Source: Amphiscolops sp. MND2022
Lineage: Eukaryota
Reading direction: 5' to 3'
Length of the DNA: 64,000 nucleotides
Assembly (NCBI GenBank): GCA_964187785.1
Contig: OZ076409.1
Span: 19,220,001-19,284,000, forward strand
Numbering within the stretch: the stretch's first letter is position 1; each line of letters begins with the position of its first letter. A model generated the notes under the pieces. It saw nothing but the letters and a program-made list of their open reading frames with translations. It searched no databases and was not told the origin of the DNA. Below are positions 31,801-63,487 of the stretch, piece by piece. The position numbers were made by a program, and so were the translations under genes.

Positions 31801-33360
31801 GTTTACGGGCGTCTAATGTGATTTTAACTGTTTTATCTTTCTTTACTCTAATTACTACGGATGATACGAACAGTCTTCTTAGATTGTTTCAAGTCTTTCG
31901 AGATGTCCGGATTTTATTATTCGGTCCCGTTAATTTTTTACGTCTTTCTGTAGGTGGTAAAGTATTGGTCTTGCTTTCTGTTCGATTGGGTAGCATCCCG
32001 GTCTTATCTGAATTTTCACTTCCGCGTTCTTGATTGTATGGTTCTTTTCGAATAATTTGTGGATTTTTTTGTGGATGTTGTTAGATTGATTGGTGTGGTC
32101 ATCCAATGAAAATTTGTTGATGGTAATTGGTAATTGTATTAGCCAATTTACACCCAGTAGTGGTGTAATGACATTTCGTTGTGTAATGAGTATCGGTGAT
32201 TTTGTGGTTTCGCCGTTGTATTCGTTAAATGCCCATATTCTCCCTAAGAATTCGATTTCATTCTTGTTCACGTCCTGGTATCTTTCTTTCAGCGGGTGTA
32301 TATCTTTTTGGTTCTAAAGTTTCGGGTTGTTTGGCATGATGGTGACCAGAGATGCGGTGTCGATTGTGGAATTTTGGTATTTTCTATTGATTTTCAGTCT
32401 GATGCCGTAATTGTCATTTTTGTTCGTTAGTATTCTGTTGATTTGGGCTGTTTGTTGGATTTCTTCTGGTTCTCTTTCATCCTCTTCGCTGTGTGTTGCT
32501 TCGAGGTAGTTGACTCTTTGTTTTCATGTATTGCTCATTTTGCTACGGCACCCTCTCGCGAAGTGTCCTATTTTGTGGCACTTACATTCCACCGTCTTTG
32601 CGGGGCATTTATGTTGTGATGACCAACTTCGTTGCCCGCAGAATCCACCGTTATTTTTCTTTGTTGTTGTTTCGGTGTTTGTTCGGTAATTTTGTTTATT
32701 TCGCGGTTGTATCTTTTGCATCGCTTCTTCTTTTATTCCTTTTTCTTTCGCGAGTACTGGTGGTATTGTTGATTGATTATGCCTTTTTTCATAGCTGTCT
32801 TGGGTTACCAGATCCAAGGTGGTTTTCAGGTTCAGTGTTTTTTCTCGAATAAGTTATCCCGTAGTTTTTTGTCGGTGATGCTGGTGATAAATTTTGATAT
32901 CAATAGGTCTTCTTGTTTGATGTCTTTAAATTCACAGTTTCTTTCCAACGATACACTGCCATTGGTCTTCTGGTGTTTCATTGTTTTGCCCAGAAGAAGT
33001 CTCCACGGCTATGGTAGGTATTGCGTTTAGGCATTTAATAGTCTTTGAATAGTTGTATCAGTTTTACGGTGTTGATTGTGTCTGGATCGGTATTGAACTC
33101 TCCTTTTGTAATCATCTCTATCGCGAATGGCCCAGCTCCCCAAATAAAATCTTGTCTTATTATGGGTTCTTTTGCCGTCCATCCAGTGTTCGTTGGTATT
33201 GTCTCGCCGGATAGAGCCGGTTTTATATCGATGTCGTGGATTCGTTTAATGTAATGTCTCATTCGTTCGGTCCGTTCTTTGGGGGTGTATAATTTGTTAC
33301 CGTCAAGTCCCTTGTCCTCAAGGTAAGGTAGTAGTATATTGTTCGTGGTTGCTGTCATTG
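28870..33360 (-). mobile_element. Degenerate Mag-like Ty3/Gypsy element, internal region with deletions and frameshifts; LTRs not identified
   Basis: gag 33035-33358; Zn knuckle CGQRSWSSQHKCPAKTVEC..CHKIGHFARGC (32524-32817); protease FTIDTAS (~32340-32375); RT start VKIQIRPGCYPIEQKARP; RNase H SDHQALEPLLKRN..RLTRWLDRL (30755-30940); integrase HIGHSGINKM..C..C (29406-29741) and SDKGGAF..GLVERTIQSLK (29064-29372). Confidence 0.85.
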
Positions 33361-34091
33361 TTTCTTTTGTCGGATAAGATGGGTTTTACACGGTAAAAAT
33401 AAAATCCGGTAAAAACGGTCTAAGTTCGTATGTTGCGGTATGAACTGAATCTACGGTAGAGGTCATGATGGCAGCATGTCACGGTACTGAAATAATAGCT
33501 CAGCTGAATAAAGACTAAATAGACAAAATTAGTTTAGATCGAAATTGCGGACGGTTGAAAAATGCAATCAGTTGAAATTGTGAGCAGTTGAAATGGCAAC
33601 AGTTGAAATTGCATAGATTGAAAGTGTATAGGAAAAAATGTCAAGTAACCGTTTTTCGTAGTGTGAGATCGAGAAGAGACTTCTGAATAATTATTCCTGA
33701 GTTTATTTAAATGACTTTGCTGTGTTTGTTTCTCACGTGGGAAAGAGTTTTTGTCTGTTAGAAGATTGCGATACTGTAGTATTCGACACTGTGCGGCTTC
33801 GTAGAGATTTTTTAAAGTCAAAGAACATTTTACCACGTGCTACCACAAAATCGTACTATTTTGTTTTTCATGGTGTTAGGTCAAGGAGAAGTCCATATTT
33901 TGAGTCATGCTAAATTTAAAGTGCAGCCAGGGGCAGCGAAGCGCTCCTTTTGATTCTTTTATTGTTAAGTATTTGAAAGATGCTAAATGAGACCAAAAAG
34001 CGTTTTGCTTCCTTCCAGTTTTTCCGGGAATACATTTTTCAGATTTTTGTCGTCTCTAAATGGTTACCCTTTTGGTATTTTGAAGACAAAG

Positions 34092-36349
34092 TGTTACGAC
34101 TATTAACCGGTGTTGTTTTAGAACTAGTCGCAGTTTGTGTCTTGACTGGAGTGGACGTTCTCGTCACGGAGATGTTTTCTTGTTCAGAATCAGAATCTTG
34201 TATGTTCGAGCTAATTGAGCGTTTCTTGTTCGCTGGTGCTATTAATTTAAGCATTTCCTTTTGGTTTTCGGCTAATATCTTTGTTAGATCAGTCATTATT
34301 TCTTTCCTCAGAGTTGTTTTTATTTCCTCCAGGTTTTCAAACTCAAGTCTAGGATTTTTACTAGAACTGGGTATCAGGTTTCCAGTAGAGTTATTTTCAG
34401 TTAAGGAAGCTTCGAAATCTCCTGACACTAAATCAGCTACAGCTTTCCTCTTCTGGCTTCTAGTGGTCATTTTTGATGTTAAAAAATGATTCTTCGGCAA
34501 TAGATGAATTCTTCGAAGATGATTTTGTTCAACGTTGAAACAACGAAAACAGTTTAAGTTTATTACAACTTGCAAAACACAACTAACTGACTTTACATGT
34601 CTCGTCTAAGTATATATACCTTCTTAGCGTCATTTGTTCCTCACCTAAAAATTCCTAGGAATCGCAAAATTAGGTTTGTTCAACAAAAAGCGCTAATGAT
34701 TCATATCATTTCAGTCGCGCGTCGTAAAAATCAGGCATCAAAATTCCTAGTTGCGTCAGTGTTCCGTAAATTTGTTGAAATCATTTTTGTTCAGGCAATC
34801 CCATTTCCTGTTTAAGTCTCAAAATTGCGGTAAAATAAAAGTCTAGCTTGCATTTTCATCAGCGTAAGTACGCCGGCATGAACAATTAGTCAACTTTCAA
34901 TTTGGGAGATTGAGATTCGAAGTAAAAGAATGACTCGCAAAAATTAACGAAATTGAAACGAGGCAAAAGGAATTTTGGACTACTGATATTTGAATATTAT
35001 TGAGGAACAAGCAACGCTAAGAAAAACATAATGATGATTAATCGGTTAATTTTGTAAACTGAACAACTGCACCAACAGAAAATCCAACTTTGACCTATAC
35101 GTGGCCATAACGTAACAAGTACGAATTGCGAAGTACAAATAGATAGGAAAGAAATGTATTTGCAGGCAATAATTATTCTGCACTCGATTGGGCTTCGTAT
35201 ATGAATAAACAGGGCAGGCATCCTGCATCAATAGCACTTGGTTTGGGTTTTGACGTTGACCTTACGTTACGTTCTGTGAAACATTTTAATGATAAACAAC
35301 TAATCACTGAATACATAAACTCTTAATGTAACGTAAGGCACACGTGAATTGAGAAACTATTGCAATAGCACCGTTACTCTTCGATCATAGTTTTAGCCCC
35401 TTCTTACAGTACAACCTTTTACATGTGGACTTGTTTTCAAAAACCCTTTAAGTGCGTCGATTCAGAAAAAATCCTTATTTGATTTCGGTTTAAACTAATA
35501 CTTCACCGCTATTATTTTACGAATTGTTCCGTACGTATTAAGATTGGTTATAGCTGAACGGCGGAATACAATTTTACAATCCGCTCCGTAGCTGTCCCGT
35601 ACGTATTAAGGTTGCTCATAGCTTAGCTATCGGACCAAGCGGAGAGAAAGCGGAGTGCGTAGGTGAAATCATTCTCTCTCTCTTATTCCAATTGGTGTTG
35701 CTAGGGGCAACCGAAATTGCTTCTATTCAACTTAGCTAAGAATAGTTCTATCAATAGAGTGACGTTATTGGTCCGTAGAAGCAAAATTCCTAATATTAGC
35801 TCAGTAGATTGGCGTTGCCATAGCGTTGTAAATATTTGCCTAAATCACTTGGCTGTGCTTTAAGTGAATATTGACAACCACTTCATCTCTGGAAAACAAT
35901 TCCGCTCTATTATTTGTCTGTTCCTTTTCATTTTAGATTGTATGAATTCCGTTGGGATCTCGGAATTGAATTTATTTTAATGTTTTCATTTTAGTGTGGA
36001 CCAGTGGAAGGAATGATCCCAATTATAAATGTTCATTTTAGTGTTTAGATTAGTATGGCAGAAAATCAGAAGATCATACCGGAAATGAAAAATCTTATCA
36101 CGCGCGGAGAATAGTTAACCGGAAGTTTTAGTTAAAAATCATTTCTGAAAAACGTTCCGTAACGTTTACGTTAGGTTTTGTATTCGAGAAATTATCTGCA
36201 ACCGATTTAGCTGTACTGTAAGTAAAATTTAGATCAGTTTAAATTTAAGTTAGTTTAATAGAGTTTACCTCGGCCTTGTCCCCGGCCAATTTCGAAACCA
36301 GGTATCCCACTGCAGCAGCTATAATCCCGACCGGGAGCGGGTCGTGACA
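34092..36349 (-). repeat. 3' LTR (2258 bp)
   Basis: Direct repeat of 48042-50299, preceded on the minus strand by the PPT. Confidence 0.97.
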
Positions 36350-37124
36350 GGGCCCCTCTTGAAGCAAGAGACAAGGGTATAGCTCGGCAATGGGGAATTT
36401 CTTTCCTGATGATGACAGGGGGACGGCCGTTAAGAATCCGCGTGCCGCGACTACGTCCTCTTCCCGAAGTCATTTTGGTTATGAATCTTTCTTCTTCTTC
36501 CATTTCTCGAAGCTCCTGTTCTCTTCGCATCGTCTCGATAGGGCATATCTCCGGCGGCTTAGTAGGGTCGCTTAACGCACAATTGCATTGCTCTCTTTTG
36601 GTCGGAGGGGGGGCATTCTCTTTAGCTCCGTAGTGAGTGCGTCCACGGCCAACTGTTGCGAAAAACTGCCGATCTTCTATGTCTAAGCCGTGTAGTGAGT
36701 CCAAATCTGCCAGCGAAGGCTCATTCAAGTCATTCAGCTTGACTGTGTTTGGAGCTCTTTCATTTCCTAATTGGGGAATGTTTGCCTTTTCTTTTAGGAC
36801 TGGTGTTGGTCTTGTTTGGGGCTGGCTCGGCGGCGTATCCGGTTCTTCGTAGAAGTCGGTATCTGAGTTAGGGTTTACTGCTGGCGGTAGATTAAAACTT
36901 ACTCTCCCTAGCTTTTTCTTTTTGCTGGGGGTAGGGCCGCGCTTTTTCGGAGAACAGTCAGACTCGGATGTTGAATCTGTTTCAGCTTCACTCCCACGGA
37001 ATGCTTCCGTTGACGAGTCACTAAGAGTGCTGATCGTGTTGAGGGGTAATGCCTTCAATGGCGTACTGCAACGGTTATTATCTTCGTCGGAAGATATATC
37101 TATCACCAACGAGTATCCGTTCAT
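36255..37124 (-). CDS. Sense accessory ORF (289 aa, disordered, SIM-like and NLS-like motifs) spanning the PPT and ending in U3
   Basis: ATG at 37124; LVIDISSDED, PKKRGPTPSKKKKLGR, RG-rich C-terminus; the last 95 nt lie inside the 3' LTR. No signal peptide or transmembrane helix visible. Confidence 0.65.
   Translation of the reverse strand: MNGYSLVIDISSDEDNNRCSTPLKALPLNTISTLSDSSTEAFRGSEAETDSTSESDCSPKKRGPTPSKKKKLGRVSFNLPPAVNPNSDTDFYEEPDTPPSQPQTRPTPVLKEKANIPQLGNERAPNTVKLNDLNEPSLADLDSLHGLDIEDRQFFATVGRGRTHYGAKENAPPPTKREQCNCALSDPTKPPEICPIETMRREQELREMEEEERFITKMTSGRGRSRGTRILNGRPPVIIRKEIPHCRAIPLSLASRGALSRPAPGRDYSCCSGIPGFEIGRGQGRGKLY
36350..36360 (-). promoter_or_regulatory. Polypurine tract AAGAGGGG(CCC)
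   Basis: Minus strand reads aagaggggccc|tgtcacg at the 3' LTR boundary. Confidence 0.65.
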
Positions 37125-37282
37125 GATTGCAGAGATTAAGTTTTGTAGGATTCTGGCTTATGTCTTCTTTGACTAGTTCACAGAGCATTAGTTTGGCAGA
37201 AGATGCTGGTCAAGCTTTTATGAAAATTGGACGACAAATGAACGTTTCAAATTCTTTCCTTCGTAATTTTTAACGAAATTCT

Positions 37283-37445
37283 ATTGGTCGGTTTTTCCGC
37301 TTTCGTTTCGGTGCGTCTCGAAATGAAAGAAACGAGTTCTTTCTTACTGCGTTGTGATTGGTCGAAATAATTGATGAAAACTTCTAATTCTAGTAGCCGT
37401 CCTCTTTTCGGTTAATGGCGTAATGACGTCACACAGTTTCATTGG
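37283..37445. promoter_or_regulatory. Putative internal bidirectional promoter
   Basis: ATTGG (CCAAT) at 37283, 37357 and 37441; TGACGTCA at 37424-37431; lies between two divergent start codons (37124 on -, 37715 on +). Confidence 0.45.
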
Positions 37446-37714
37446 TGTATTACGCCTGTGTTCCGTGATCTCCTGATGATTTTCTTAATTCTTCTTTAGC
37501 ATTTCTTGGTGGATTTTTATCCATCTTTTGGAAACGTTTTGTTCCGTCAATGCCATAATAGGCTTTTAAAAGGAAAAAGGAGATTGGAACATAGATGATT
37601 TTCTTTCCTGTAAAAATGATGCTGTTGATCCTTTTCTTGTCTTTTACGTTCGCTTTGCGTAGTTTTCTTCTTGATTTTTCCTTTTGTTTTAGATTTCTTG
37701 ATTTATTATTCTGG

Positions 37715-40700
37715 ATGGATGGTGATTTTGGTCCTCCTGCTGGTACTGGTGCAAAGTTCGTCAGTGGAAACGAGACAACATTCAATTTCACCGATGATGA
37801 TGTTGTTCCTTCTGACATCGATATTTCTCGTTCTGCTTCGGGTTGGTAAAATCTTTCTGACTTCCTGGGCAATAGGACTATTGTTTTGGTGATCAGCCTT
37901 TTATAGTCTTACCCGTAACTCTGACGCGTCTGAACCAGATCTTGATTTTCAGTAACTCAACCCATTGCGCTGCCCGGGCTTAGCTCCCATACGGAGGCTA
38001 GTCGTTCTTTGGTTCCCGTGGGACTCCCTTCCATTACCGATGCATTTCCGGTTGCCTCTGTCAACGCTATCCTGACGACTGTTCTTGCTGGTTCTGGGCA
38101 TGCTGCTTCTTTCCAGCCTGGTTCCTCTTCGTTGTTAGAGGCTCCCGACGTCAGTACTGGAGTTTCGCGAGATGCCACCGGATTTGGTTCTCAGCTTCAA
38201 GATGCTGCTGTTGTTAGTGAGCCTCGTGGAGGCGAGGCCGTTCCGGCCTCCCCAAAAGAAAGTGGAGGAGGAAGAAATGATGTGGAAGCTGCGACTGTCG
38301 ATGTCATGGAACCAAGTTGTTCTCGTGAGCGGGCTGTGAAGTTTTCGACTCCGCCACCGCAACGTCAAGGTGGTCATTCTCCTAGTTTACAGGAGCTTAT
38401 GGCTGAGGGATGGAGCAGTTAGTTGTTTCTCTTTTTTTTTCTCATCCTTTCCTTTTCTCTTCTCTTCGTTTTGTGGAATGCTTGTATGGAGTTGTTCAAT
38501 TTAGTCTTCTGGTTGGGTTTCTCAGAGTGGTTCGGGATTCCATAGTGTTTCCACCTAATTGTTTTGATGTTTGTTATAGGTGATCCAGAAGCGGAGGAGG
38601 AGGTGTTAGCTTTCCCCGGCAATACTCCGTTGAGTCCGATTGACTTGGCGCAATTTGGGCGTCATCTGATTTCTGAGGTGGAGACTCGGGCAGTACAAAG
38701 TATCGAGACAGGTACGTTAGTATGTCATAGTTGATAGGGGGTTGTTTAGGTGTGGTTGGGGTTTTGGGGTCGCAATATCGTGTGTCATATTTATAGATGG
38801 TTGTGTTATCGTTTGCAGGTTTCACGAAGTTGTCGAAGAAGATTGGAGATCGCTGCCAGCGGCGAGTGCGAACTTATGGGAATCGCAAGCATTTGAAGAG
38901 ACGCATGTTATCTTTGCATCCCGCATATTCCAACTTTGTCAGTGGCTCTAAGTGCGGGGAGCCTACGTCCTTCTTTTGTCGAGTGTGCAATCGAGATGTG
39001 CGGATGAAGGCACAAGGATCTGGCGAGTTTAAACGTCACTTCGCATCTGATGGGCACTGGTTTCGTGACGTGCGCTACAGAGTACATTCAGGGTTGCCCG
39101 TATACAACAGATGGTTGGAGCCTATGGAACTGACTGCCGCTCAGATTGCGGAATACAAAGCTCAACCTTTTGTGGACTTGGCAGAGGGGTTTCCCTTTCC
39201 AGAAGATTTGGTGCCCAAACATGCCCAAGTTGATTCAAAGGTCCCATTTATGACCATGATCTCGGCCGTCTGTGAGTGGCTCCGGAGTGGCGGCGATTTC
39301 ACGTTGCTGCGACGTTTATGGGCGTGTTTCCGAGCTTCTTTGGGTGAGAGGGCGCCCGAATATCAGCTGAATTGGAGTCGTGCTGAGACGGTGGTAAGTA
39401 GGGGTATTACATATTTTTGTGGTCTTTGGGTTCATGAGCTTTGTCTGTATCGTTTTCCCTCTTTTTCCCTTTTTTTTTCTTCTTTTTTCTTTTCTTCTTC
39501 GGGAGGGGGGGGCAGTAGTAGTGTGGTTTTGTAGTCATGGTATTTGTATATTGTTTCAGTCCTTGCTGTGTCGTGGCCTTGCTCCTCGGGTGTTGCGTTT
39601 GGTTCTCAGTGCAGTCGGGACGCGCAATGAATATGCATTGTTCTATGAGAAAGACGCGGATGTGGAACGATGCTTTGTTGTGTGCTGGTTGGATAATGCT
39701 CTGCAGAAAATCTGCATTGGTCAGGAAGTTTTGGACCAGCCTATGCCCAAATCCGAGTTGGTTCCTTTGGCACAGTTCGTCCATAGTGTGCAAAATGCGC
39801 GCCTTCCCTTTTGTGTCAGCGGTGCTAGTCCGGTGCTTCTTCGAGTGATAGAGGACAATCGTACTGATGGGAAACGACTTGTTATGCATCAACAGTTTTC
39901 CGAGGAGGTGTTCCTACAGTGTGTGCGTCAGGCACATCAGGATGTTTTCGGAATGGTAGAGGTGACAAGTTTGGTGGACTATGTCATTTTACGGCTAAAG
40001 AGCGCTGTGTACGAGGACTGGACGGATGGCAAGGTGTTGCTGCGCAAGGCCATTCGTCAAGGTTTCGTTGCCTTCCAGGATCTTCGTGAGGTTCTGACTG
40101 ATTTGGTGGACCTGTGGCCTTCAATTCGCCTGTTCATTAGGTGTACCGGATTGCCTCATGTGAAAGATCAAGCCGACAGTGTGAGTTTGTTGCATGATTT
40201 TTTTTTTCGGGAGGTTCTTCACGGTCGTCTTGTTGGTCATCTGTTGTTTTCCGTCTGCTTAGTTATTTTGTGTTGTTGTTTAGTTGAGAGGTATGGATTC
40301 AACTGTGATCTCAGACGGACTGGTGCCGTATCGTTTTGGGCTGTTGCAATTGATGTTGGATACTTTCCATATTCATTTGCCGAAGTTGAGACAGAGCCGC
40401 AGCGATTATGCATTCCATGGCTATGGTGAATTATGCAATTTCGTATACTGCTTGTTGATGAAGACACGCCAGTTATCAAGTCTTCCAGCTATTCACGATT
40501 GGGATGCATACATGGACGTGGAGAAGGCGGCAAGTTTCCCTGTTGCACCTATAGATGAGTTCTTGGCTCACTGTGATTATGGGAAGTCTCTTTTGTCGTC
40601 GAAAGCGAGCGAGATGCCAAAGTTTCGTGGTCGCTGCAGAGAATTTATCGATCGCCTCGTCACTCTGTTAGTGGAGAGTGCCAGCACTCGTTCCATTGTT

Positions 40701-41576
40701 TCGAAAGGTCTGTGCAGTTTCTGCCCTGAACTGATGTTAGAAGGTGACGATAAGTGTGCGTTTGATTTGTTTTTTGAGCTGTGTGATGGTCTTGTGAGGT
40801 GCGGCGCTTTATCTCGAGAAGAATGCAATGCTGCTGTGGATGAGTATAGTGCGTACGTGATCGAGAAACGCAGGCAGCATAGTCGATTGGAGCGTTCTGC
40901 CAGTTCTATTACGGACATTCGCCGCTACTTGCTGGATGATTTTGGGTTCCAGTCACGACGACATGTACTTCGTGTCTTCAAGTTGTGTTGTTTGCTTGTC
41001 GGTGAGCCCAACCGTGTTAGTCCTCCGTTTACTCTTGATCTGTCGAGTTGTAAACAGGCTGAAGGAAGTGTTCTTCTGTGTTGCAGAGTTGTTCAATCGT
41101 ATGTTTTGAGCGACGGTTATTCTCCGCAGTCATTATTTACTGAGTCATCTATGGGCCTAATTCGAGATGCAGTTTCTGATGCTGGGTTATTTTATATTGG
41201 CTCTGATTTTAACGTGTGGAAAGATTTGTGTGATGCCGGTGTGGACTCGTTTATTGCTTCTTTTTGCGAGCTGTATAAAGAATTTTTGGCAAAGCGACGT
41301 CAATCCAGTGATGAGCATTATACGGAGTGTAATCGAGTCAATCGTTTGTCTCGGGCAGAGCAGGGGTCTCGTAGTAGTTCCGTTGTGCAGAGTAGTTCCA
41401 GTTCTGTTAGTGGAAAAGGGAAAAGTGGTGGAAGTAAAGTTGGTGAAAAGAGCACTGATGGGAAGCAGGTCGGGAAGACGAAGAAGTCTAACGTGCAAGC
41501 TGGTGGTAGTAAAACGACTCCGAAGAAGAAGTCGAAGAAAGACATTGATCCTTCCGTACATCATCATGTCAAGTGA
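37715..41576 (+). CDS. Antisense spliced accessory gene inside the retrotransposon; exons 37715-37841, 37953-38417, 38580-38711, 38819-39393, 39560-40180, 40284-41576 (3213 nt, 1070 aa); BED-like zinc finger plus hAT-transposase-like body
   Basis: Five GT-AG introns (111, 162, 107, 166, 103 nt) with phases 1,1,1,0,0 that join six open segments into one frame; C-x2-C-x16-H-x5-H at 38977-39057. The first exon and start codon are the least certain part. Confidence 0.82.
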
Positions 41577-41722: not shown

Positions 41723-44700
41723 TTAGTTTTGAGTTTGACGTAAATCGTCCGCTGTAGTTGAGTTTAGCATTCTGAAGTCAGGATCCACGTTGGGTCTCGG
41801 ATTAGGTCTCAAATTGTATCGTCCCACTTTTCTAGGATTGTATCCAACGACTATAGGCGGTAATTCGGGTGTTTTGGGAGGGCTGTGTATCGGTGGTGGG
41901 GTCAAAATATATGGGTTATCGCTGACATCTAGATCAAATGACGTTATATTGTCGGAAGGTGTTTTATCTGCTGCAGTATTTTCATTTGTGGCTGTTTGAG
42001 CCACGTCGCTTTCCGTTGTAGCTTCGTGTGTGGTTGTTTGAACCACGTCATTTTCCACTGTGCTTCCATTGGTGGTTGTTTTAACCACATCATTTTCCGT
42101 TGTAGTTTCGTTGCGTCCTGTTGTGTCTGTGATTTCTGTAACTGTGGCTTCTTCTGCGGCGTTTTCGGTATTGTTTCCGAACAGAACTTCTCCGAATTCG
42201 GTTTCCCAAGCTTGCGCGTACCAATCATTGTGGGTTGTTTTAACCTCTGGGTCTGGAAGATAATCTTCCCTTCTGACTGTTACGTCAGGTACTCGCTGAT
42301 TGGGCGCATATAGCCTTAGGCGAATTCTATGGAGTGTTTGGGTATATCTAGTTCCCGTGCGGCGTACGACGTAGTTGTTGTTCGAGAGTACTTTGACTAC
42401 TATGTAGGGTCCAGTCCAAATGCAATCTTTAAAAGCGAATTTCATCGACTGGTTGTCTGCCTTCGGATTGAGGACGTAACAGTAGTCATTGACTTTGAGC
42501 GGTGTAGCTGTTGCTTTCTTGTCATAGTACTGTTTGTATTTGAGGTAGGATTGCATTAGGTTTTCTTTGGCGGCATGGTGTATTTCGGATATTTGCTTCT
42601 GTAGTTGATCCGTTAGTTCGTCGTTGCTATCTTTTTTCCATTCGGGTTTCAATCCGAGTTTTATGTCTAGGATGTTGTACGGAATGCGTCCGTGAAATAC
42701 TGTTGTAGGTTCACAACCTAGGCTTTCATGATAGCTCGTATTGTAGTTCATGACCGCGATCTGGACATATTTATGCCACATAGAGCGTCGTTCTCCCGTT
42801 GATATCTTTAGGGAGGTTTTCAAAGAGGCATGAGTCCTTTCTAGGATGCCAATTGTTTGAGCGTGTTTCGTTGATGCGTGGCTTATCCGTATATCCAATG
42901 TTTGTGTTATTTGATTGACTACTTCTGATCTGAATTGTGATCCTTTATCTGTTAGAATGACGGTCGGCAGGTAGCAGTGTCGTGTCATGACGTCTATTAT
43001 GCATCGTGCGACTGTTTTGGCTGTCATGTCCTGTGTCGGGTAAGCGAAAAGGTAACGTGAAAAAACGTCCATCATCGTTTTGATGTGTTGGTATCCATTT
43101 GAGGAAGGTAGGTTTGGTAGAATGTCTACTTCTAGGCAGTCTTCTGGTCCCATTGTGAATTCAGTGTTGCTTAGCATTTTAGGGCGTATTTGTCTTGTGT
43201 CAATTCTTTTATTGGCAATGCAGTCTTGACAGCTGGTTACCCAAGCTCTGATTTTACGTGCAAGACCCGGGAAGTAGTATTTCGCTCTGCATTCTTGTAT
43301 CATTTTTGCGATTCCTGGATGTTTATTTGTTTTCCCATGTAGAGTGGCCAAGAGTTCTGGGACTAGGTGTTTCGGAATTATGATTTGATTATGGGTGACT
43401 GATCCGTCTTCTCCGTAGTATTTCCGCATCAGAACTCCATCTTTCATTATGATTCTTTCTTCGTGGCGTAATAGGTTACGTCCTCGTGGTTCGGTTTTGA
43501 GAAGGTGTTTGTCATATTCTTCGTGTGAAATCCGTTGTTTCAGTGCTTTGAGGAGAGGGTCTGCATCTTGCTCGTTTCTGATCCGTGCATTTTCTTTGAT
43601 TGCACCGAAGGAGTAGACTGCGGAGTTGAGTGGTATCTTGATGACTTCGGTTACTTTTGTTGATAATTCTCTCTCATGTTCGTCTAGGGCGCGTCGCTTG
43701 CTGAGTGCTTTTCGGGCAAAGATTTCTTGTTCAGATTCATCTTCGTCATCAGGTAGGAAGAAAAGTTGTTCTTCATCAGCTACATCTGATGATTGTAGAT
43801 TGACCTCAATTGGGGACGTTAGGATGTCGTCTCGTAGCTTAAGTTGTACTTTTTCTTTCGGTGTAAGTTCGAGTCTTGAGAGAAAATCTGCTGCTGTGTT
43901 TTGGGAGCCTGCTACGTGCATGATTCGAAACTTGAATTGTAATACATAGTCGCAGGCATTCCAGAGTGCAGCGGGTGTCGTTTTGGTCTGGAAGAATCTC
44001 GTTACTGAGCGGTTGTCCGTTAAGACCAGGGTTGGAATTGTTGCTTCCCAAAGTATGTGACTGTATTCGAGGAATGCATGATAGATTGCTAAGAATTCCT
44101 TGCAGTAGATAGACATTTTCAGTTGTGCAGGTGAAAAAACTCGTGATCCGAACGCTACTGGTGCGAAAGTTTTCCGTTTGGAGAGTATTTTGCGTTCATC
44201 ATTCTCCTCAATCATGAGGGCGTAGCCTGACGCACGAAAGCTTGCGTCCGTCATTAGGACGTACTGTTTCCCTGCTATAGGCTGTCTTAGTGCGAGTCCA
44301 CAAGCTTCCGCTAAACTGGCGTTGATTTCCCTAAAGTTATCGACAAGTTCTTCTGAAATTCTGATCTTGGAGTCTGCTTTAAGAAGTTCGTACATGCCGA
44401 TGAGTTTTTCTGATAAGCGCGGTATGTAGTTGCGGTAATAGTTAACAAAGCCAATGTACTTTTGAACTTGTTTTTTGGATTTGGGGAAGCGTACTTTGGA
44501 GAGGAAATTTTTGACTTTTTGATCTTGCGGGGCTACTCCGTCAGGGGTGATGGTTCGTCCAAGAAATTCGACTTGGGTTACTCCAAAATGGCATTTTTCG
44601 ATGGTTAGTTTTAGTCCTGCTTTCCGGATGCATTTGAAGACTGCTCTGATATTTTTTATGAGCTGTTCCGTTGTGTTTGCGGCAATGCCAATGTCATCTA

Positions 44701-47020
44701 CGTATTGTGCACATTGATCGGCTTTAATGACTGAGTCCAGATACTCACGCATGAAGCTCGAAAAGGCTGATAGGGCTCTGCTTAGTCCTTGTGCCAGGCG
44801 ACGGTAGGCGAACGTCCTACTAGCAAAATTAAAAGCAAGTAACTCTACTGACCTTTGATCTGCCATTTGAAGGCAGTGATACGCCTGGGAGCAGTCGAGT
44901 TTGCAGAATAGTTTTTTCCCTGCTAGGTGTTGTGCCGCATCTGAGAGGGTGCTGACAGGGTGGTTGTTGTTGATGTAGTCATCTGCTATGAGTGCGTTGA
45001 TTTTGCGCAGATCCACCAGTAGTCTCAGTTTGCCGTTGGGTTTCCGTTGTGCAAATATGGGACTGGCGTACTTGGAGAAAGGGAGTGTCGTGATGATGCC
45101 GTATTTGTGCATCAGTGCCAGTTCCACTGTTAGGTCTTCTTTGAGGTTGATTGGGACGGGTAAACTCTGTGTGTAGACTGGTTTGTCGTCCTGTGGTGTT
45201 AGGCTGACTTTGAACTGTGTATTCATCCCGATATCTAGTCGGTGTCGAGCAAAGATGTCATTGAATTCAACAATGGTGTTCTCAAGTTTTTCACGATCTT
45301 TGCCCGTAATTAGTGAGTCTGTCCATTTGAACATTGATAGAAATTTGTTGCGAGAGTCTTCGTTTTCGGTTGGGTCAAGTTTTTCTAGTTCGGCAAGGTC
45401 TCGCAGTTCTTTCAGGATTCGCTTTTGTATGGGTGAATGTTCTTGTTCGTTGCCTGGGTGTTCTGGGGTTGGGAACCAGAATTTTCCTTCATTGTCTTCT
45501 GGCCGTTCTACTTGCATTAGTGCGTTGATGTACGTGATTACATCGTCATGGTCATTGAGGAGATTCAGGGCGGCAATGTCAACTGGACGGATCATCTTCG
45601 TTTCTTCTGGTTTCAGGATTTGCAGTTCAGCCATTTTGGTGTCGTTGGCTATTGTGTATGGAAAATCCGTGGTGTTGGCGATTTTAATTGGAAGCTTTTT
45701 ATCTCTAGCTGTTGTAATCGCTGGGGCTACTATTACTTTCGCGCATTCATCGAATTGTGGTAGGGGTTGTATTGTGCCCGTTATTGGGTGCTCAATACTC
45801 ACAGGGATTGTTGCGTAGATGACTCGGGTAGAGTGCGCTGGGATTGTATGCTTGGCTTCGGTCTTTATTGTGATGGGTTTGGGATTGCACTTTTGTCTTT
45901 CGTCTGTGAGCGCCATCGTGATTTGAATCTTGGGAAAGTTGATGGTTCCTTGTGCTGTGTCAAGGATTGCGGCATGCTTTCGTAGAAACGCTAATCCAAT
46001 TATGGGGAATGACGTTTGATTCATGATGATGAATGTTTCTTCAAAAGTGTAATCCCCTATCTTGAAGCGTAGAGTGTACGTGGCAAGTGGTTGTTCTAGT
46101 TCGGCATTGGCGTATTGCACTTTGAAAGGGGGTGGAGGTGCTTTGTTAATAATGCATTGACTCGCATTTTGGTGGAGTTTTTCAGCATCCCGTTCGCTAA
46201 TAGCATTAATGTACGCACCTGAGTCGACTAAGGCTTCGATTTTGACAGTGTTGAATTCGATTGGTAGGAAGAGCATTCTCTTTTTCTTCTTGAGGGCAAT
46301 TGCAGACATTAACGGGATGTAGTCGTCTTCCTTGTCGTGCTGGATGAATTCTTTGATGACATCTAGATCTTCTGGTAGTGTTGGGTGACATTCCGTTATT
46401 TCTTCGTCTTCAGCGGCTATTGCTGTGGCTGGCGCGGTTTGTGGTGATGACGAGAGCGAAGCGGTGTTTTCTCGCTGTTCTCTTGCTTGTCGTGACCATA
46501 TTGTTTTGTCTTCAATGCATAAGATGTTTTCGGCATCGATCGGTGTGGACGTGACGGTGACGGGTGCTGTTGGGGACGGTGTTGTTCTTTTTAGGATCGG
46601 TGACGGCGGTGACGGTAGGTTTGTGGTCTTCGTGGTTTGAGCTTGAGGGTTTGAGACTTGTATTTTGAAGGATAGTTTATTTGTACCATAGATGGTTGGT
46701 TCATCCCAAGGGTCACATCTGTAGTCTCTGTCATATATATAAATTCGGTCTGTTTTTGATTCCGGCAACGGTCTTTTGAGTGTCGCATAGTTATCAGGTG
46801 ACTCCGTTATCCACTGGGGTAGTGGTGTTGGGTCGTCTGGGTGTCTGGCGTTATGTCTGAGAATCATGCCTACGTTCCAGCGGCGTTGCCAGTCTTGAGT
46901 TGGTTCTTCATTACATTCAGTTAAAAAATCTTCTTCATACCTGTTTGGGGGGTCCTCTATCGTGTACGCCCTCGCGTCTACTTTTTCCCCAAATCGTAGG
47001 CGCGGCGATTTTAGTTTTTT
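41723..47020 (-). CDS. pol: Pol polyprotein (protease, RT, RNase H, integrase with GPY/F module); frame open from 47050, entered by -1 frameshift
   Basis: ALVDSGA protease; RT LDCSQAYH, QGL, YVDD; RNase H TDAS..KEFLAI..TDN..ADFLSR; integrase H..HPG..C..C, MDVFSRY, TDKGSQF, GILERTH; WTGPYIVV. No internal stops in 1714 aa. Confidence 0.97.
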   Translation of the reverse strand, partial: KKLKSPRLRFGEKVDARAYTIEDPPNRYEEDFLTECNEEPTQDWQRRWNVGMILRHNARHPDDPTPLPQWITESPDNYATLKRPLPESKTDRIYIYDRDYRCDPWDEPTIYGTNKLSFKIQVSNPQAQTTKTTNLPSPPSPILKRTTPSPTAPVTVTSTPIDAENILCIEDKTIWSRQAREQRENTASLSSSPQTAPATAIAAEDEEITECHPTLPEDLDVIKEFIQHDKEDDYIPLMSAIALKKKKRMLFLPIEFNTVKIEALVDSGAYINAISERDAEKLHQNASQCIINKAPPPPFKVQYANAELEQPLATYTLRFKIGDYTFEETFIIMNQTSFPIIGLAFLRKHAAILDTAQGTINFPKIQITMALTDERQKCNPKPITIKTEAKHTIPAHSTRVIYATIPVSIEHPITGTIQPLPQFDECAKVIVAPAITTARDKKLPIKIANTTDFPYTIANDTKMAELQILKPEETKMIRPVDIAALNLLNDHDDVITYINALMQVERPEDNEGKFWFPTPEHPGNEQEHSPIQKRILKELRDLAELEKLDPTENEDSRNKFLSMFKWTDSLITGKDREKLENTIVEFNDIFARHRLDIGMNTQFKVSLTPQDDKPVYTQSLPVPINLKEDLTVELALMHKYGIITTLPFSKYASPIFAQRKPNGKLRLLVDLRKINALIADDYINNNHPVSTLSDAAQHLAGKKLFCKLDCSQAYHCLQMADQRSVELLAFNFASRTFAYRRLAQGLSRALSAFSSFMREYLDSVIKADQCAQYVDDIGIAANTTEQLIKNIRAVFKCIRKAGLKLTIEKCHFGVTQVEFLGRTITPDGVAPQDQKVKNFLSKVRFPKSKKQVQKYIGFVNYYRNYIPRLSEKLIGMYELLKADSKIRISEELVDNFREINASLAEACGLALRQPIAGKQYVLMTDASFRASGYALMIEENDERKILSKRKTFAPVAFGSRVFSPAQLKMSIYCKEFLAIYHAFLEYSHILWEATIPTLVLTDNRSVTRFFQTKTTPAALWNACDYVLQFKFRIMHVAGSQNTAADFLSRLELTPKEKVQLKLRDDILTSPIEVNLQSSDVADEEQLFFLPDDEDESEQEIFARKALSKRRALDEHERELSTKVTEVIKIPLNSAVYSFGAIKENARIRNEQDADPLLKALKQRISHEEYDKHLLKTEPRGRNLLRHEERIIMKDGVLMRKYYGEDGSVTHNQIIIPKHLVPELLATLHGKTNKHPGIAKMIQECRAKYYFPGLARKIRAWVTSCQDCIANKRIDTRQIRPKMLSNTEFTMGPEDCLEVDILPNLPSSNGYQHIKTMMDVFSRYLFAYPTQDMTAKTVARCIIDVMTRHCYLPTVILTDKGSQFRSEVVNQITQTLDIRISHASTKHAQTIGILERTHASLKTSLKISTGERRSMWHKYVQIAVMNYNTSYHESLGCEPTTVFHGRIPYNILDIKLGLKPEWKKDSNDELTDQLQKQISEIHHAAKENLMQSYLKYKQYYDKKATATPLKVNDYCYVLNPKADNQSMKFAFKDCIWTGPYIVVKVLSNNNYVVRRTGTRYTQTLHRIRLRLYAPNQRVPDVTVRREDYLPDPEVKTTHNDWYAQAWETEFGEVLFGNNTENAAEEATVTEITDTTGRNETTTENDVVKTTTNGSTVENDVVQTTTHEATTESDVAQTATNENTAADKTPSDNITSFDLDVSDNPYILTPPPIHSPPKTPELPPIVVGYNPRKVGRYNLRPNPRPNVDPDFRMLNSTTADDLRQTQN
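41995..42120 (-). repeat. Three imperfect 42-nt tandem repeats encoding 14-aa Thr-rich units in the integrase C-terminal tail
   Basis: TTENDVVKTTTNGS / TVENDVVQTTTHEA / TTESDVAQTATNEN. Confidence 0.8.
46965..47020 (-). promoter_or_regulatory. Programmed -1 ribosomal frameshift signal (A AAA AAC plus downstream stem-loop)
   Basis: gag ends CCA AAA AAC TAA; pol frame reads AAA AAA CTA AAA TCG; downstream CGCGCCTAC..GTAGACGCG can pair. Confidence 0.8.
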
Positions 47021-48420
47021 GGCTGAGAGGACGTGGTAGGTACAGGTTGTTCACTGATTTTGTTGGTTGGGATTGTGAATTCTCGTTTCTTCTTCCTGGG
47101 GTCATTTACTGCGTTGGCTCCGTTCCAACAATTCTCAGTTTTGTGCATCTTGCCACATGTATCACACTTGGGTTTGGGTACTTCGTTTTGGGCTGGGTCT
47201 TTTGTGTTTGTTTTGGCGGTATTGTAACGCTCTCGTTGAAGTTTGCGACACTGTGCCTTGTAGTGGCCATATTTGCCACAGTGAAAACAATGGCCTCGTT
47301 GTTGTTGGTCTTTTTTATGGTCCGTCACTACAGCGTCCACTGTGTTGAGTGGGACTAGGATTGTTTCATCGGGCGCACCTAGTCCGTTTAATCTCATTTC
47401 CCTCTCAAGATGTAAAACTATGTCATTGTAGGGTTTATCTTCCAAATATGCTCTGTTGAGGATCTTTTTGACGTGATCCGGCATTTTGGCGTAGATTGCT
47501 TTATCAATGAATTTTTGTGCTTCTGAGCCGAATGCTTCTTTTGCAGTTTTTTGCAGGGTGTCGAGGAACTCATGGAGTTTCTGTTTAGTGGGGTCAAAAT
47601 GCAGGGCGTCCCACTCACATCTCGCTTTAGCGGATGATTGGAAATCACCAAAGCGGCGTTTAAATGCCGTTATGACTTCTTCTAGGTTGTCTTTTTTGGT
47701 GTCATCGAGATTACAATACGCTTGTAGTGCGTTTCCTCGTAGGAGTGAATGAAAGTAGTTGATCTTTTGTATCTCGGTTAGGTGAGGATACATTTTGATA
47801 TTGTTTCGGAATAGGTCCTCAAAAAGTTCAAACTTTTCGGACTTACCATCGAAAACTGGGAGCGAAGCAGTGAGTGCTTTCGGCATCGGAAGTAGATTGG
47901 TTGATGGGAATGTCTGTGGTTGTGGGGCGAACAGGATCTTTGATGTGGAGGGACGGTCTTTTTGTTGTTCGTTGAGTATACGTTGCGTTTTCGGTCGTTT
48001 GGTGGGTTGGTTAGTGGAATCATTGAGGACTCCTGTCACCATGTTACGACTATTAACCGGTGTTGTTTTAGAACTAGTCGCAGTTTGTGTCTTGACTGGA
48101 GTGGACGTTCTCGTCACGGAGATGTTTTCTTGTTCAGAATCAGAATCTTGTATGTTCGAGCTAATTGAGCGTTTCTTGTTCGCTGGTGCTATTAATTTAA
48201 GCATTTCCTTTTGGTTTTCGGCTAATATCTTTGTTAGATCAGTCATTATTTCTTTCCTCAGAGTTGTTTTTATTTCCTCCAGGTTTTCAAACTCAAGTCT
48301 AGGATTTTTACTAGAACTGGGTATCAGGTTTCCAGTAGAGTTATTTTCAGTTAAGGAAGCTTCGAAATCTCCTGACACTAAATCAGCTACAGCTTTCCTC
48401 TTCTGGCTTCTAGTGGTCAT
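47011..48420 (-). CDS. gag: Gag, 469 aa from MTTRSQKRK; first ~126 codons lie inside the 5' LTR
   Basis: Capsid-like LPVFDGKSEKFELFEDLF..KINYFHSLLRGNAL; knuckles CFHCGKYGHYKAQC and CDTCGKMHKTENC; first ATG at 48420 (the track ORF starts at an upstream TTG). Confidence 0.9.
   Translation of the reverse strand: MTTRSQKRKAVADLVSGDFEASLTENNSTGNLIPSSSKNPRLEFENLEEIKTTLRKEIMTDLTKILAENQKEMLKLIAPANKKRSISSNIQDSDSEQENISVTRTSTPVKTQTATSSKTTPVNSRNMVTGVLNDSTNQPTKRPKTQRILNEQQKDRPSTSKILFAPQPQTFPSTNLLPMPKALTASLPVFDGKSEKFELFEDLFRNNIKMYPHLTEIQKINYFHSLLRGNALQAYCNLDDTKKDNLEEVITAFKRRFGDFQSSAKARCEWDALHFDPTKQKLHEFLDTLQKTAKEAFGSEAQKFIDKAIYAKMPDHVKKILNRAYLEDKPYNDIVLHLEREMRLNGLGAPDETILVPLNTVDAVVTDHKKDQQQRGHCFHCGKYGHYKAQCRKLQRERYNTAKTNTKDPAQNEVPKPKCDTCGKMHKTENCWNGANAVNDPRKKKREFTIPTNKISEQPVPTTSSQPKN
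48029..48041 (-). promoter_or_regulatory. Primer-binding site TGGTGACAGGAGT, tRNA-Leu-like
   Basis: Directly abuts the 5' LTR CA; resembles the complement of the tRNA-Leu 3' end (TGGTGTCAGGAGT). The tRNA assignment is from memory. Confidence 0.7.
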
Positions 48421-50299
48421 TTTTGATGTTAAAAAATGATTCTTCGGCAATAGATGAACTCTTCGAAGATGATTTTGTTCAACGTTGAAACAACGAAAAC
48501 AGTTTAAGTTTATTACAACTTGCAAAACACAACTAACTGACTTTACATGTCTCGTCTAAATATATATACCTTCTTAGCGTCATTTGTTCCTCACCTAAAA
48601 ATTCCTAGGAATCGCAAAATCAGGTTTGTTCAACAAAAAGCGCTAATGATTCATATCATTTCAGTCCCGCGTCGTAAAAATCAGGCATCAAAATTCCTAG
48701 TTGCGTCAGTGTTCCGTAAATTTGTTGAAATCATTTTTGTTCAGGCAATCCCATTTCCTGTTTAAGTCTCAAAATTGCGGTAAAATAAAAGTCTAGCTTG
48801 CATTTTCATCAGCGTAAGTACGCCGGCATGAACAATTAGTCAACTTTCAATTTGGGAGATTGAGATTCGAAGTAAAAGAATGACTCGCAAAAATTAACGA
48901 AATTGAAACGAGGCAAAAGGAATTTTGGACTACTGATATTTGAATATTATTGAGGAACAAGCAACGCTAAGAAAAACATAATGATGATTAATCGGTTAAT
49001 TTTGTAAACTGAACAACTGCACCAACAGAAAATCCAACTTTGACCTATACGTGGCCATAACGTAACAAGTACGAATTGCGAAGTACAAATAGATAGGAAA
49101 GAAATGTATTTGCAGGCAATAATTATTCTGCACTCGATTGGGCTTCGTATATGAATAAACAGGGCAGGCATCCTGCATCAATAGCACTTGGTTTGGGTTT
49201 TGACGTTGACCTAACGTTACGTTCTGTGAAACATTTTAATGATAAACAACTAATCACTGAATACATAAACTCTTAATGTAACGTAAGGCACACGTGAATT
49301 GAGAAACTATTGCAATAGCACCGTTACTCTTCGATCATAGTTTTAGCCCCTTCTTACAGTACAACCTTTTACATGTGGACTTGTTTTCAAAAACCCTTTA
49401 AGTGCGTCGATTCAGAAAAAATCCTTATTTGATTTCGGTTTAAACTAATACTTCACCGCTATTATTTTACGAATTGTTCCGTACGTATTAAGATTGGTTA
49501 TAGCTGAACGGCGGAATACAATTTTACAATCCGCTCCGTAGCTGTCCCGTACGTATTAAGGTTGCTCATAGCTTAGCTATCGGACCAAGCGGAGAGAAAG
49601 CGGAGTGCGTAGGTGAAATCATTCTCTCTCTCTTATTCCAATTGGTGTTGCTAGGGGCAACCGAAATTGCTTCTATTCAACTTAGCTAAGAATAGTTCTA
49701 TCAATAGAGTGACGTTATTGGTCCGTAGAAGCAAAATTCCTAATATTAGCTCAGTAGATTGGCGTTGCCATAGCGTTGTAAATATTTGCCTAAATCACTT
49801 GGCTGTGCTTTAAGTGAATATTGACAACCACTTCATCTCTGGAAAACAATTCCGCTCTATTATTTGTCTGTTCCTTTTCATTTTAGATTGTATGAATTCC
49901 GTTGGGATCTCGGAATTGAATTTATTTTAATGTTTTCATTTTAGTGTGGACCAGTGGAAGGAATGATCCCAATTATAAATGTTCATTTTAGTGTTTAGAT
50001 TAGTATGGCAGAAAATCAAAAGATCATACCGGAAATGAAAAATCTTATCACGCGCGGAGAATAGTTAACCGGAAGTTTTAGTTAAAAATCATTTCTGAAA
50101 AACGTTCCGTAACGTTTACGTTAGGTTTTGTATTCGAGAAATTATCTGCAACCGATTTAGCTGTACTGTAAGTAAAATTTAGATCAGTTTAAATTTAAGT
50201 TAGTTTAATAGAGTTTACCTCGGCCTTGTCCCCGGCCAATTTCGAAACCAGGTATCCCACTGCAGCAGCTATAATCCCGACCGGGAGCGGGTCGTGACA
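48042..50299 (-). repeat. 5' LTR (2258 bp)
   Basis: TG...CA ends; six substitutions versus 34092-36349 on a by-eye comparison (~99.7% identity). Confidence 0.97.
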
Positions 50300-57367: not shown

Positions 57368-57494
57368 CTGGATAAAAAAACAATACGCAATCCTTAAGTT
57401 ACAGAAGTAATAGAAATAGTTCATTTATCGATGTAAACTAAATGAGCGGCCAGTGGACGAAAAAAGGTAGGTTTTCAAAAACATTTTTCGTATA

Positions 57495-57699
57495 TGTGAC
57501 ATGAATACAGTTGAAGGTCAATAGTAACGCAATGTTACATAATTCTTACTTACTCTATGACCTTTTATGTTAATTACATAACATACCTGCTAGTAACTTT
57601 AATGTCATCTGTAGTACGATATAGTGGACACTATAACTTGATCTTACGTACAATACAGTATTACATTCCCAAACTTCTTTATTCCATTGGTATACAACA
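57495..57699 (+). repeat. 5' LTR (205 bp)
   Basis: tgtgacatg...tatacaaca, followed by the PBS. Confidence 0.95.
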
Positions 57700-57709
57700 T
57701 GGCGCAGTC
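57700..57709 (+). promoter_or_regulatory. Primer-binding site TGGCGCAGTC, tRNA-Ser-like
   Basis: Abuts the 5' LTR; same start as the tRNA-Ser PBS of Drosophila 297/17.6-type elements (from memory). Confidence 0.7.
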
Positions 57710-57712
57710 AGA

Positions 57713-63005: not shown

Positions 63006-63282
63006 TATTTACAGGAAACACCGTTAAACGAATAAACAGCCAAGCCAGCGGAAACACACAATCAGACTGAGGAGGACCGGAAGAGAAAACAGGAGGAACG
63101 TGAGGAAACCAGTAGCATGGTATCGAGGCGAGAAGCACCGTCAAATCTTAAACAAGAAACTGAACGGACTCATTATCAACAATTGAGTTGATACAACCTT
63201 TTTGTTCATACATGTAATCTAAATTTGTGTTATAAAATACAGTTATCAATTATACTAGATAACTTCCTGCCAGGGGGGGGAA

Positions 63283-63487
63283 TGTGACATGAATACAGTT
63301 GAAGGTCAATAGTAACGCAATGTTACATAATTCTTACTTACTCTATGACCTTTTATGTTAATTACATAACATACCTGCTAGTAACTTTAATGTCATCTGT
63401 AGTACGATATAGTGGACACTATAACTTGATCTTACGTACAATACAGTATTACATTCCCAAACTTCTTTATTCCATTGGTATACAACA
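63283..63487 (+). repeat. 3' LTR (205 bp)
   Basis: Same sequence as the 5' LTR; preceded by the PPT, followed by the TSD. Confidence 0.95.

Follow-up and report, generated by a model that had tools for sequence, protein, structure and literature searches.

The stretch of DNA analysed here, 64,000 nucleotides of contig OZ076409.1 (positions 19,220,001 to 19,284,000) from Amphiscolops sp. MND2022 and hereafter called the window, contains a young, intact Ty3/gypsy retrotransposon on its minus strand. Downstream of pol, this element carries a 289-codon open reading frame (ORF) that runs into the 3' long terminal repeat (LTR). Conservation makes it almost certain that the ORF is an authentic accessory gene belonging to a large Ty3/gypsy clade, and the gene family to which it belongs is real, conserved and apparently undescribed so far. 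Additional ORFs located between pol and the 3' LTR mostly have no known function, a recognised open question (PMC7264820) to which the accessory family brings a deep natural alignment that narrows to a few testable residues. The ORF and the sequences that it overlaps are as follows.

36255..37124, minus strand: accessory ORF, 289 aa, product predicted to be disordered, codons 259-289 within the 3' LTR
34092..36349, minus strand: 3' LTR, 2,258 bp, TG...CA, with TATA at 34618, an initiator-like sequence at 34590 and AATAAA at 34564
36350..36360, minus strand: short polypurine tract (PPT) candidate, 8 purines followed by CCC, abutting the 3' LTR

Conservation and coding constraint of the accessory gene

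An earlier sequence-only reading of the window had singled out this ORF, and the selection tests described below confirm it beyond chance. The 3' LTR begins at 36349, inside codon 259, and 31 codons (259-289) plus the stop touch the LTR, exactly as had been claimed. The ORF does cross the PPT candidate, as was also proposed, but that tract is only an 8-purine run followed by CCC. The distance from pol was likewise given correctly as 4.6 kb (the ORF starts 4,598 nt downstream of the pol stop), but only about 3.6 kb of it is antisense gene, and about 0.8 kb is promoter-like DNA. Because of the positions of the single TATATA, a TCAGT initiator-like sequence 28 nt later and the AATAAA, the stretch of LTR entered by the ORF would be U3, with a length of about 1.76 kb, the assignment of U3 and R being by consensus only.

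A protein search retrieved 79 homolog clusters among 897 candidates, comprising 877 sequences with 31-98% identity in local alignments, all from ENA, and a hidden Markov model search of 1.84 billion representatives gave 181 matches, the best 150 of which span 49-303 aa. When loci were scanned with the ORF alignment, contigs from viruses, metagenomes and prokaryotes yielded no relative. Of the 79 cluster representatives, 40 retain the N-terminal block together with the LTR-overlap block and the tail, and their clusters account for 724 of the 877 sequences; the LTR-overlap block is present in 56 of the 79. The motif counts reported below exclude the other 39 representatives, which are partial or frameshifted, and cover 41 full-length sequences, namely the query and the 40 complete representatives, which fall into two clades, near (19 sequences) and far (22). 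Intactness in sister copies, which the sequence-only reading had named as a check, was seen in five clusters of 47-82 sequences, for each of which 15 members were listed: both ends are kept in 61 of the 75 (14, 12, 13, 7 and 15 by cluster).

Selection was assessed with frameshifted homologs, in which off-frame residues expose bases at known codon positions. From 290 family proteins, 19 aligned segments were obtained; removal of one duplicate and two close relatives left 16 segments with 350 sites. Over these sites, 81 mismatches fell at third positions versus 39 at first or second positions, and neutral simulation gave ratios of 1.0-1.04. By region, the third-position versus first/second-position mismatches were 38 versus 20 before the PPT, 18 versus 10 over the PPT and the attachment site (att; 133 sites) and 25 versus 9 in U3 beyond att. 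As a caveat, these sites are not independent of one another, derive mostly from the last 50 codons and come from a database of called ORFs only. Neutral simulation left the frame free of stops in 0.13% of runs when identity was 54%, and in 0/3,000 at both 45% and 32%; the natural frames are open at 31-60% identity through length changes from 216 to 301 aa. Despite the caveat, the accessory protein is clearly under constraint, inside U3 as well.

The frame could in principle encode no protein and be open by chance, or through DNA-level constraint on the PPT, att and promoter elements. Such a view draws on the RGALSRPAPG block, which coincides with PPT/att, has a column conservation of 0.97 and shows few mismatches at all codon positions; its conservation is at least partly driven by DNA. 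A database of called ORFs also favours survivors, and about half of the representatives are incomplete, as noted above. The third-position excess is nevertheless found on both sides of the overlap, before the PPT and in U3 beyond att, the frames remain open at low identity and through varied lengths, and islands of conserved motif lie distant from any known cis element. The not-a-protein reading is thus largely refuted, and we regard it as highly improbable.

Motifs of the accessory protein and their possible functions

The protein is predicted to be disordered, as the sequence-only reading had supposed: the AlphaFold 2 model built on a 46-sequence alignment has a mean pLDDT of 52.6, a pTM of 0.19 and one confident helix, at residues 195-219. 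No transmembrane segment or hydrophobic leader was detected by Kyte-Doolittle hydropathy, on which the negative for a signal peptide also rests, no dedicated predictor having been applied (best 19-residue mean 0.61 in the query and 1.04 over the 41 family members), which agrees with the earlier view that the product is not env. Pfam gave no credible family for 46 members scanned, with sub-threshold matches only (RBR, E 0.022); a PDB profile search found nothing below E 0.015; and an Atlas search returned no usable match, a result that shows neither absence nor novelty. The product is predicted to be a disordered, non-env protein of the motif-hub type. The motifs concerned are the following; SUMO-interacting motif is abbreviated SIM, nuclear localisation signal NLS, cyclin-dependent kinase CDK and protein phosphatase 1 PP1.

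37080..37109, minus strand: SIM-like motif with CK2-type acidic/Ser tail, residues 6-15, in 38/41 versus 1.3 expected from shuffles
37053..37067, minus strand: S-T-P-x-K, CDK site and Polo-box-type docking consensus, residues 20-24, in 39/41 versus 2.0 expected
36894..36923, minus strand: basic NLS-like cluster followed by PP1-type RVxF, residues 68-77, counts differing by clade (see text)
36831..36854, minus strand: conserved [FY][FY]EEP[DE][ST]P motif, residues 91-98; [FY][FY]EE[PAT] in 37/41
36606..36623, minus strand: KENxxP, KEN-box-like, residues 168-173, in 13/19 of the near and 0/22 of the far clade; column conservation 0.36
36258..36464, minus strand: basic C-terminal region, rich in RG and containing PHC and CC/CxxC, which overlaps PPT, att and U3

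The SIM-like motif with its acidic/serine tail had been noticed from the sequence, and its conservation bears this out: no other internal motif matches its weighted column conservation of 0.97 (mean 0.52), and exact LVIDISSDEE occurs in 110 of 176 block-bearing proteins. The string SLVIDISSDED, said earlier to start the protein, is present at residues 5-15, and the N-terminus reads MNGY-SLVIDISSDED. The motif has the phospho-SIM form, a hydrophobic core followed by a Ser/acidic CK2-type tail, and its letters presumably resemble those of the Daxx, PML and PIAS SIMs. The motifs, matched to the SIM, D-box, KEN, CK2 and CDK consensus forms, were chosen after the alignment had been viewed. SUMO acceptor sites occur at chance level in the 41 sequences (8/41 versus 8.9 expected).

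Several further features escaped the sequence-only reading, namely S-T-P-x-K, RVxF, clade-swapped KEN/D-box-like motifs and the basic Cys tail, which point to possible cell-cycle control. The S[ST]Px[KR] pattern has a conservation of 0.91 against the same mean. A D-box-like half-motif, LxDITN, is found in 0/19 of the near clade and 18/22 of the far clade, the reverse of KENxxP, with which it shares neither clade. The final 70 residues have a net charge of +8 to +13 in 41/41 sequences, and the first 60 residues one of -9 to 0. L[ND]DLxxP occurs in 30/41 and [IL]P[HY]C in 35/41. An internal duplication of an LNDL...acidic helix...GRG module was borderline only (p 0.014-0.21 in 7 sequences) and is not claimed.

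As a tentative working model, we favour a cell-cycle-gated SUMO-binding adaptor that may blunt silencing of the element: no internal motif is conserved better than the SIM, and repressors are brought to transposons through SUMO-SIM contacts. Such contacts form a central step in the silencing of transposons, in flies as in mammals; silencing effectors are recruited through them in flies (PMC8490990) and at mammalian endogenous retroviruses (PMC10144533). The N-terminal SIM, strengthened by CK2 phosphorylation of the SSDEE tail, would bind SUMO on host silencing complexes, while the basic RG/Cys tail would anchor the protein to nucleic acid. Activity would be limited to a cell-cycle window by CDK phosphorylation of S-T-P-x-K together with Polo-kinase docking, by RVxF-PP1 docking and by a degron of the type recognised by the anaphase-promoting complex/cyclosome (APC/C). 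As a net result, the protein would compete with or disarm the SUMO-dependent step that brings repressors to the chromatin of the element, where the antisense protein, which resembles a transposase by a weak lead, might direct it. If the protein antagonises or exploits the SUMO step, it would provide an entry to the pathway from the transposon side and might partly account for this family's very high copy number.

Transposon-coded activators of their own family are known from plants, where both anti-silencers encoded by transposons and activation driven by transposases have been described (10.64898/2026.08.24.746577). The anti-silencing adaptor would share this principle with VANC/TnpA and transposase-based anti-silencing. 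Those systems belong to DNA transposons and their target is DNA methylation, and neither "SUMO" nor "LTR" occurs as a whole word in the source text drawn on (10.64898/2026.08.24.746577). Neither a SIM-bearing accessory protein of an LTR retrotransposon nor the ORF family itself was found in a literature search that covered titles and the beginnings of abstracts, with most subscription papers outside its coverage.

A number of observations weigh against the adaptor model. A SIM indicates SUMO binding at best and not the direction of its effect. The shuffle figures overstate significance, because the homologs are related and the motifs were chosen post hoc, and conservation relative to flanking residues is the fairer measure. 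Strict RVxF is present in 19/19 of the near clade but in only 7/22 of the far clade, and loose RVxF also occurs in 14/37 proteins of the unrelated antisense family. The NLS, proposed in the sequence-only reading, holds for the near clade (17/19) and is largely missing from the far clade (3/22). The canonical D-box, RxxLxx[LIVM]xN, is found in 0/41 full-length sequences. The hAT transposase likeness of the antisense protein scored under 0.9, with no match in Pfam or fold searches to back it.

The putative cell-cycle motifs and the basic Cys tail make mitotic-tether and self-repressor roles real rivals to anti-silencing. In the first of these, a CDK-primed, Polo-docked protein would use its basic tail and SIM to hold the cDNA or particle of the element on mitotic chromosomes or at nuclear sites rich in SUMO, aiding integration in dividing cells. 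S-T-P-x-K, present in 39/41 sequences, and the tail, basic in all of them, fit this role. The S-T-P is comparable, as a match to the Polo-box docking consensus conserved in a protein of a mobile genome, with that of foamy virus Gag, which binds Polo-like kinases and promotes integration (PMC5006980), and with the SSTP of human papillomavirus (HPV) L2, which is CDK1-primed, binds PLK1 and is required to tether viral DNA to mitotic chromatin (PMC9868124). Those precedents, however, are motifs with tested function in capsid proteins, whereas here a predicted, SIM-adjacent site lies in a separate, non-structural gene with no sign of packaging. In addition, the Gag protein in the window has its own STP at residue 106, and a motif as short as STP is common, with bare S[ST]P expected in 12.6/41 shuffles. 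Mitotic delivery is a serious but unlikely alternative to the adaptor.

SIM conservation would equally serve an adaptor that restrains the element, by bringing SUMOylated co-repressors to it and thereby capping copy number or restricting the cell types in which it is active. The motif has the phospho-SIM form of the repressive host proteins PML, Daxx and PIAS, whose phospho-SIMs serve repression (PMC4276917). Self-restraint fits less well than escape from control because the family is very large (the largest pol cluster has 1,547 members, among the best 120 of 275 clusters) and the window copy is young and intact; we consider it rather improbable.

The basic RG-rich tail, present in all 41 sequences, could instead belong to a Rev- or CERV-like RNA adaptor, in which the tail would bind unspliced genomic RNA and the phospho-regulated N-terminus would couple that RNA to nuclear export or packaging. 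In Caenorhabditis elegans Cer1, CERV is a nuclear, phosphorylation-dependent accessory protein needed for export of genomic RNA (PMC10309623). CERV and the ORF3s of bdelloid rotifers resemble the present gene as non-env accessory genes of animal LTR retrotransposons (PMC10309623, PMC5408684); CERV is in addition nuclear and phospho-regulated. CERV and the ORF3s are described as products of spliced transcripts. The ORF3s encode enzymes, coiled-coil proteins or transmembrane proteins, whereas the accessory protein is a predicted disordered array of motifs without a domain match. No sequence link to CERV turned up, no direct comparison having been made, and the strongest conservation outside the PPT/att overlap concerns the SIM and STP, which export does not obviously require. 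A role as RNA adaptor seems improbable, at about the level of self-restraint or slightly below.

The protein might also manipulate the cell cycle, acting as an APC/C pseudo-substrate or as a PP1 or Polo-like kinase sink that prolongs a phase favourable to transposition. KENxxP and LxDITN are distributed as if degrons had been swapped between the clades, but this is a single clade split and effectively one event. The arginine of the canonical D-box is missing throughout and conservation of the KEN columns is low, and a degron would more simply time the protein's own destruction. Of the protein-level functions considered, this one appears the least probable.

Expression, the antisense gene and related systems

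The accessory gene is probably transcribed from an internal CCAAT promoter that it would share head-to-head with an antisense gene, with polyadenylation in the 3' LTR. The two features concerned are listed here.

37125..37950, both directions: inferred bidirectional internal promoter, with CCAAT on the minus strand at 37230, 37287, 37361 and 37445 (and 37587), and TGACGTCA at 37424
37946..41576, plus strand: antisense gene with approximate boundaries, apparently spliced; one exon is zinc-finger-like and the last exon is conserved

Four CCAAT boxes on the ORF strand, at 37230-37445, lie 106-321 nt above the ATG, and clusters of four same-strand CCAAT boxes within 220 nt number only two in the window, this one included. 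A start near 37130-37190 would avoid most upstream ATGs. The internal promoter put forward in the sequence-only reading is thus plausible by its CCAAT cluster, but splicing from the 5' LTR to a candidate acceptor at 37608 may be an alternative to it. That acceptor has 9/14 pyrimidines versus 8-10 for the inferred acceptors of the antisense gene, and six ATGs lie between it and the accessory ORF. A CHR-like TTTGAA at 37251 was not counted, being too common at about 1.9 per kb. The promoter-like interval also contains a 122-aa basic ORF (37450-37818, minus strand) without a Pfam match.

The antisense gene has GT-AG-like introns, recognised by eye, and a CxxC...H...H zinc-finger-like exon at 38797-39393. 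Its last exon has 37 homolog clusters, and some homologs seem, also by eye, to have an intron that is absent from the window copy. The Atlas neighbours of this exon are FAM200/GTF2IRD2/Dimer_Tnp_hAT at 0.87-0.89, and a resemblance to the C-terminal part of hAT transposases is a lead only. No Pfam match was found in 21 members of the antisense family, and fold searches with a low-confidence model gave nothing clear (best Z 5.4, rmsd 4.5, 87 aligned). Contigs of the antisense family, matched on size only, recur among the 145 of the ORF family in 9/51 cases, a weak sign that the two genes travel together. One antisense-family locus match (L001) was discarded as spurious; it lies in a bacterial-type gene cluster on the strand opposite to its ORF.

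The element might, more specifically, carry a two-gene counter-silencing cassette under one bidirectional internal promoter, consisting of a captured, spliced, hAT-transposase-derived DNA binder, which would find the element, and a phospho-SIM adaptor gated by CDK, Polo and PP1, which would intercept the formation of SUMO-dependent heterochromatin. We hold this fuller version to be unlikely as a whole. If true, the retrotransposon would encode its own antagonist of the SUMO step in transposon silencing, turned on and degraded in time with the cell cycle.

The sequence-only reading had likened the ORF to nef. Nef is a small accessory protein that acts through short motifs; it is made from a spliced LTR transcript, works at membranes and is myristoylated at its N-terminal Gly2. 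The accessory protein differs in lacking this Gly2 (0/41 sequences start with MG), and in having no predicted folded core and no Pfam or PDB match, and its element has no env. The part of the comparison that stands is the layout, in which, as in lentiviral nef, the last ORF of the element extends over the PPT and att into U3 of the 3' LTR (PMC11076291). The accessory ORF shares only this layout with Nef, and the overlap is convergent.

With its promoter placed by consensus sites, the accessory gene appears more like the internal-promoter cassettes of foamy viruses and maize Grande than like nef. The 3' accessory genes tas and bel2 (Bet) of foamy viruses are under an internal promoter (PMC3798896); that promoter is in env and works in one direction, whereas the present element lacks env and would use a bidirectional promoter, and homology to the foamy virus cassette was not detected. 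Among plant Ty3/gypsy elements (Grande gene23, RIRE2, Retand TRP28) there is a long region between pol and the 3' LTR, with a mean of 4,616 bp in Retand (PMC11963269), and the antisense ORFs come with a transposase-like domain, nuclear localisation and a promoter of their own (PMC7264820, PMC11963269). Taken whole, the element in the window parallels those of the Retand type. The nuclear and promoter features of the plant elements, however, belong to the antisense genes, and the passages drawn on mention neither a SIM nor a conserved sense ORF that enters the LTR. The plant antisense gene is Transposase_28, whereas the antisense partner in the window shows a tentative likeness to hAT and apparently has introns.

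The host element and the rest of the window

The element that carries the accessory gene is a young, intact 16.2-kb Ty3/gypsy element with paired LTRs, a target-site duplication (TSD), a primer-binding site (PBS), a PPT and gag followed by pol. Its remaining features are as follows.

48042..50299, minus strand: 5' LTR, with 6 differences relative to the 3' copy; a 5-bp TSD flanks the element on both sides
48024..48041, minus strand: PBS-like stretch beginning TGG, directly after the 5' LTR
47011..48420, minus strand: gag, 469 aa, by Pfam, starting 126 codons inside the 5' LTR and reading through the PBS
41723..47050, minus strand: open pol frame with protease, reverse transcriptase, RNase H and integrase by Pfam, in Ty3/gypsy order

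Self-BLAST of the window yielded one long repeat, 34092-36349 versus 48042-50299, of 2,258 bp at 99.73%. Both copies are TG...CA on the minus strand, and the five bases beside the two element ends are identical. No tRNA gene that could be compared with the PBS was found within the 64-kb window. The pol family comprises 275 clusters at E < 1e-30 among 6,613 candidates, several of them with hundreds of members.

Gag starts in the part of the 5' LTR inferred as U5, so that ORFs cross both LTR borders of the element, the accessory ORF over the U3 side and gag out of U5. Ty1 gag likewise begins within its LTR. The 3' LTR carries a 143-aa gag stub (34470-34039) that extends into flanking DNA. An A-AAA-AAC heptamer (window 47011-47025, minus strand) lies just ahead of the gag stop, with pol in the -1 frame, and is likely to be a programmed -1 frameshift site. 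Two pol homologs (P0424 and P0426) bear a dUTPase Pfam domain (PF00692), and the unannotated stretch of pol between protease and reverse transcriptase may be a dUTPase remnant.

Two more gypsy-like elements, broken by stops and frameshifts, lie at about 29000-33400 (minus strand) and at 57494-63487 (plus strand), the latter bounded by 206-nt direct repeats; tblastn found no relative of the accessory ORF in either. A dispersed repeat family with AAGGGTCCCCCCTTT units and T-runs occupies 4000-15600 and 55400-56300.

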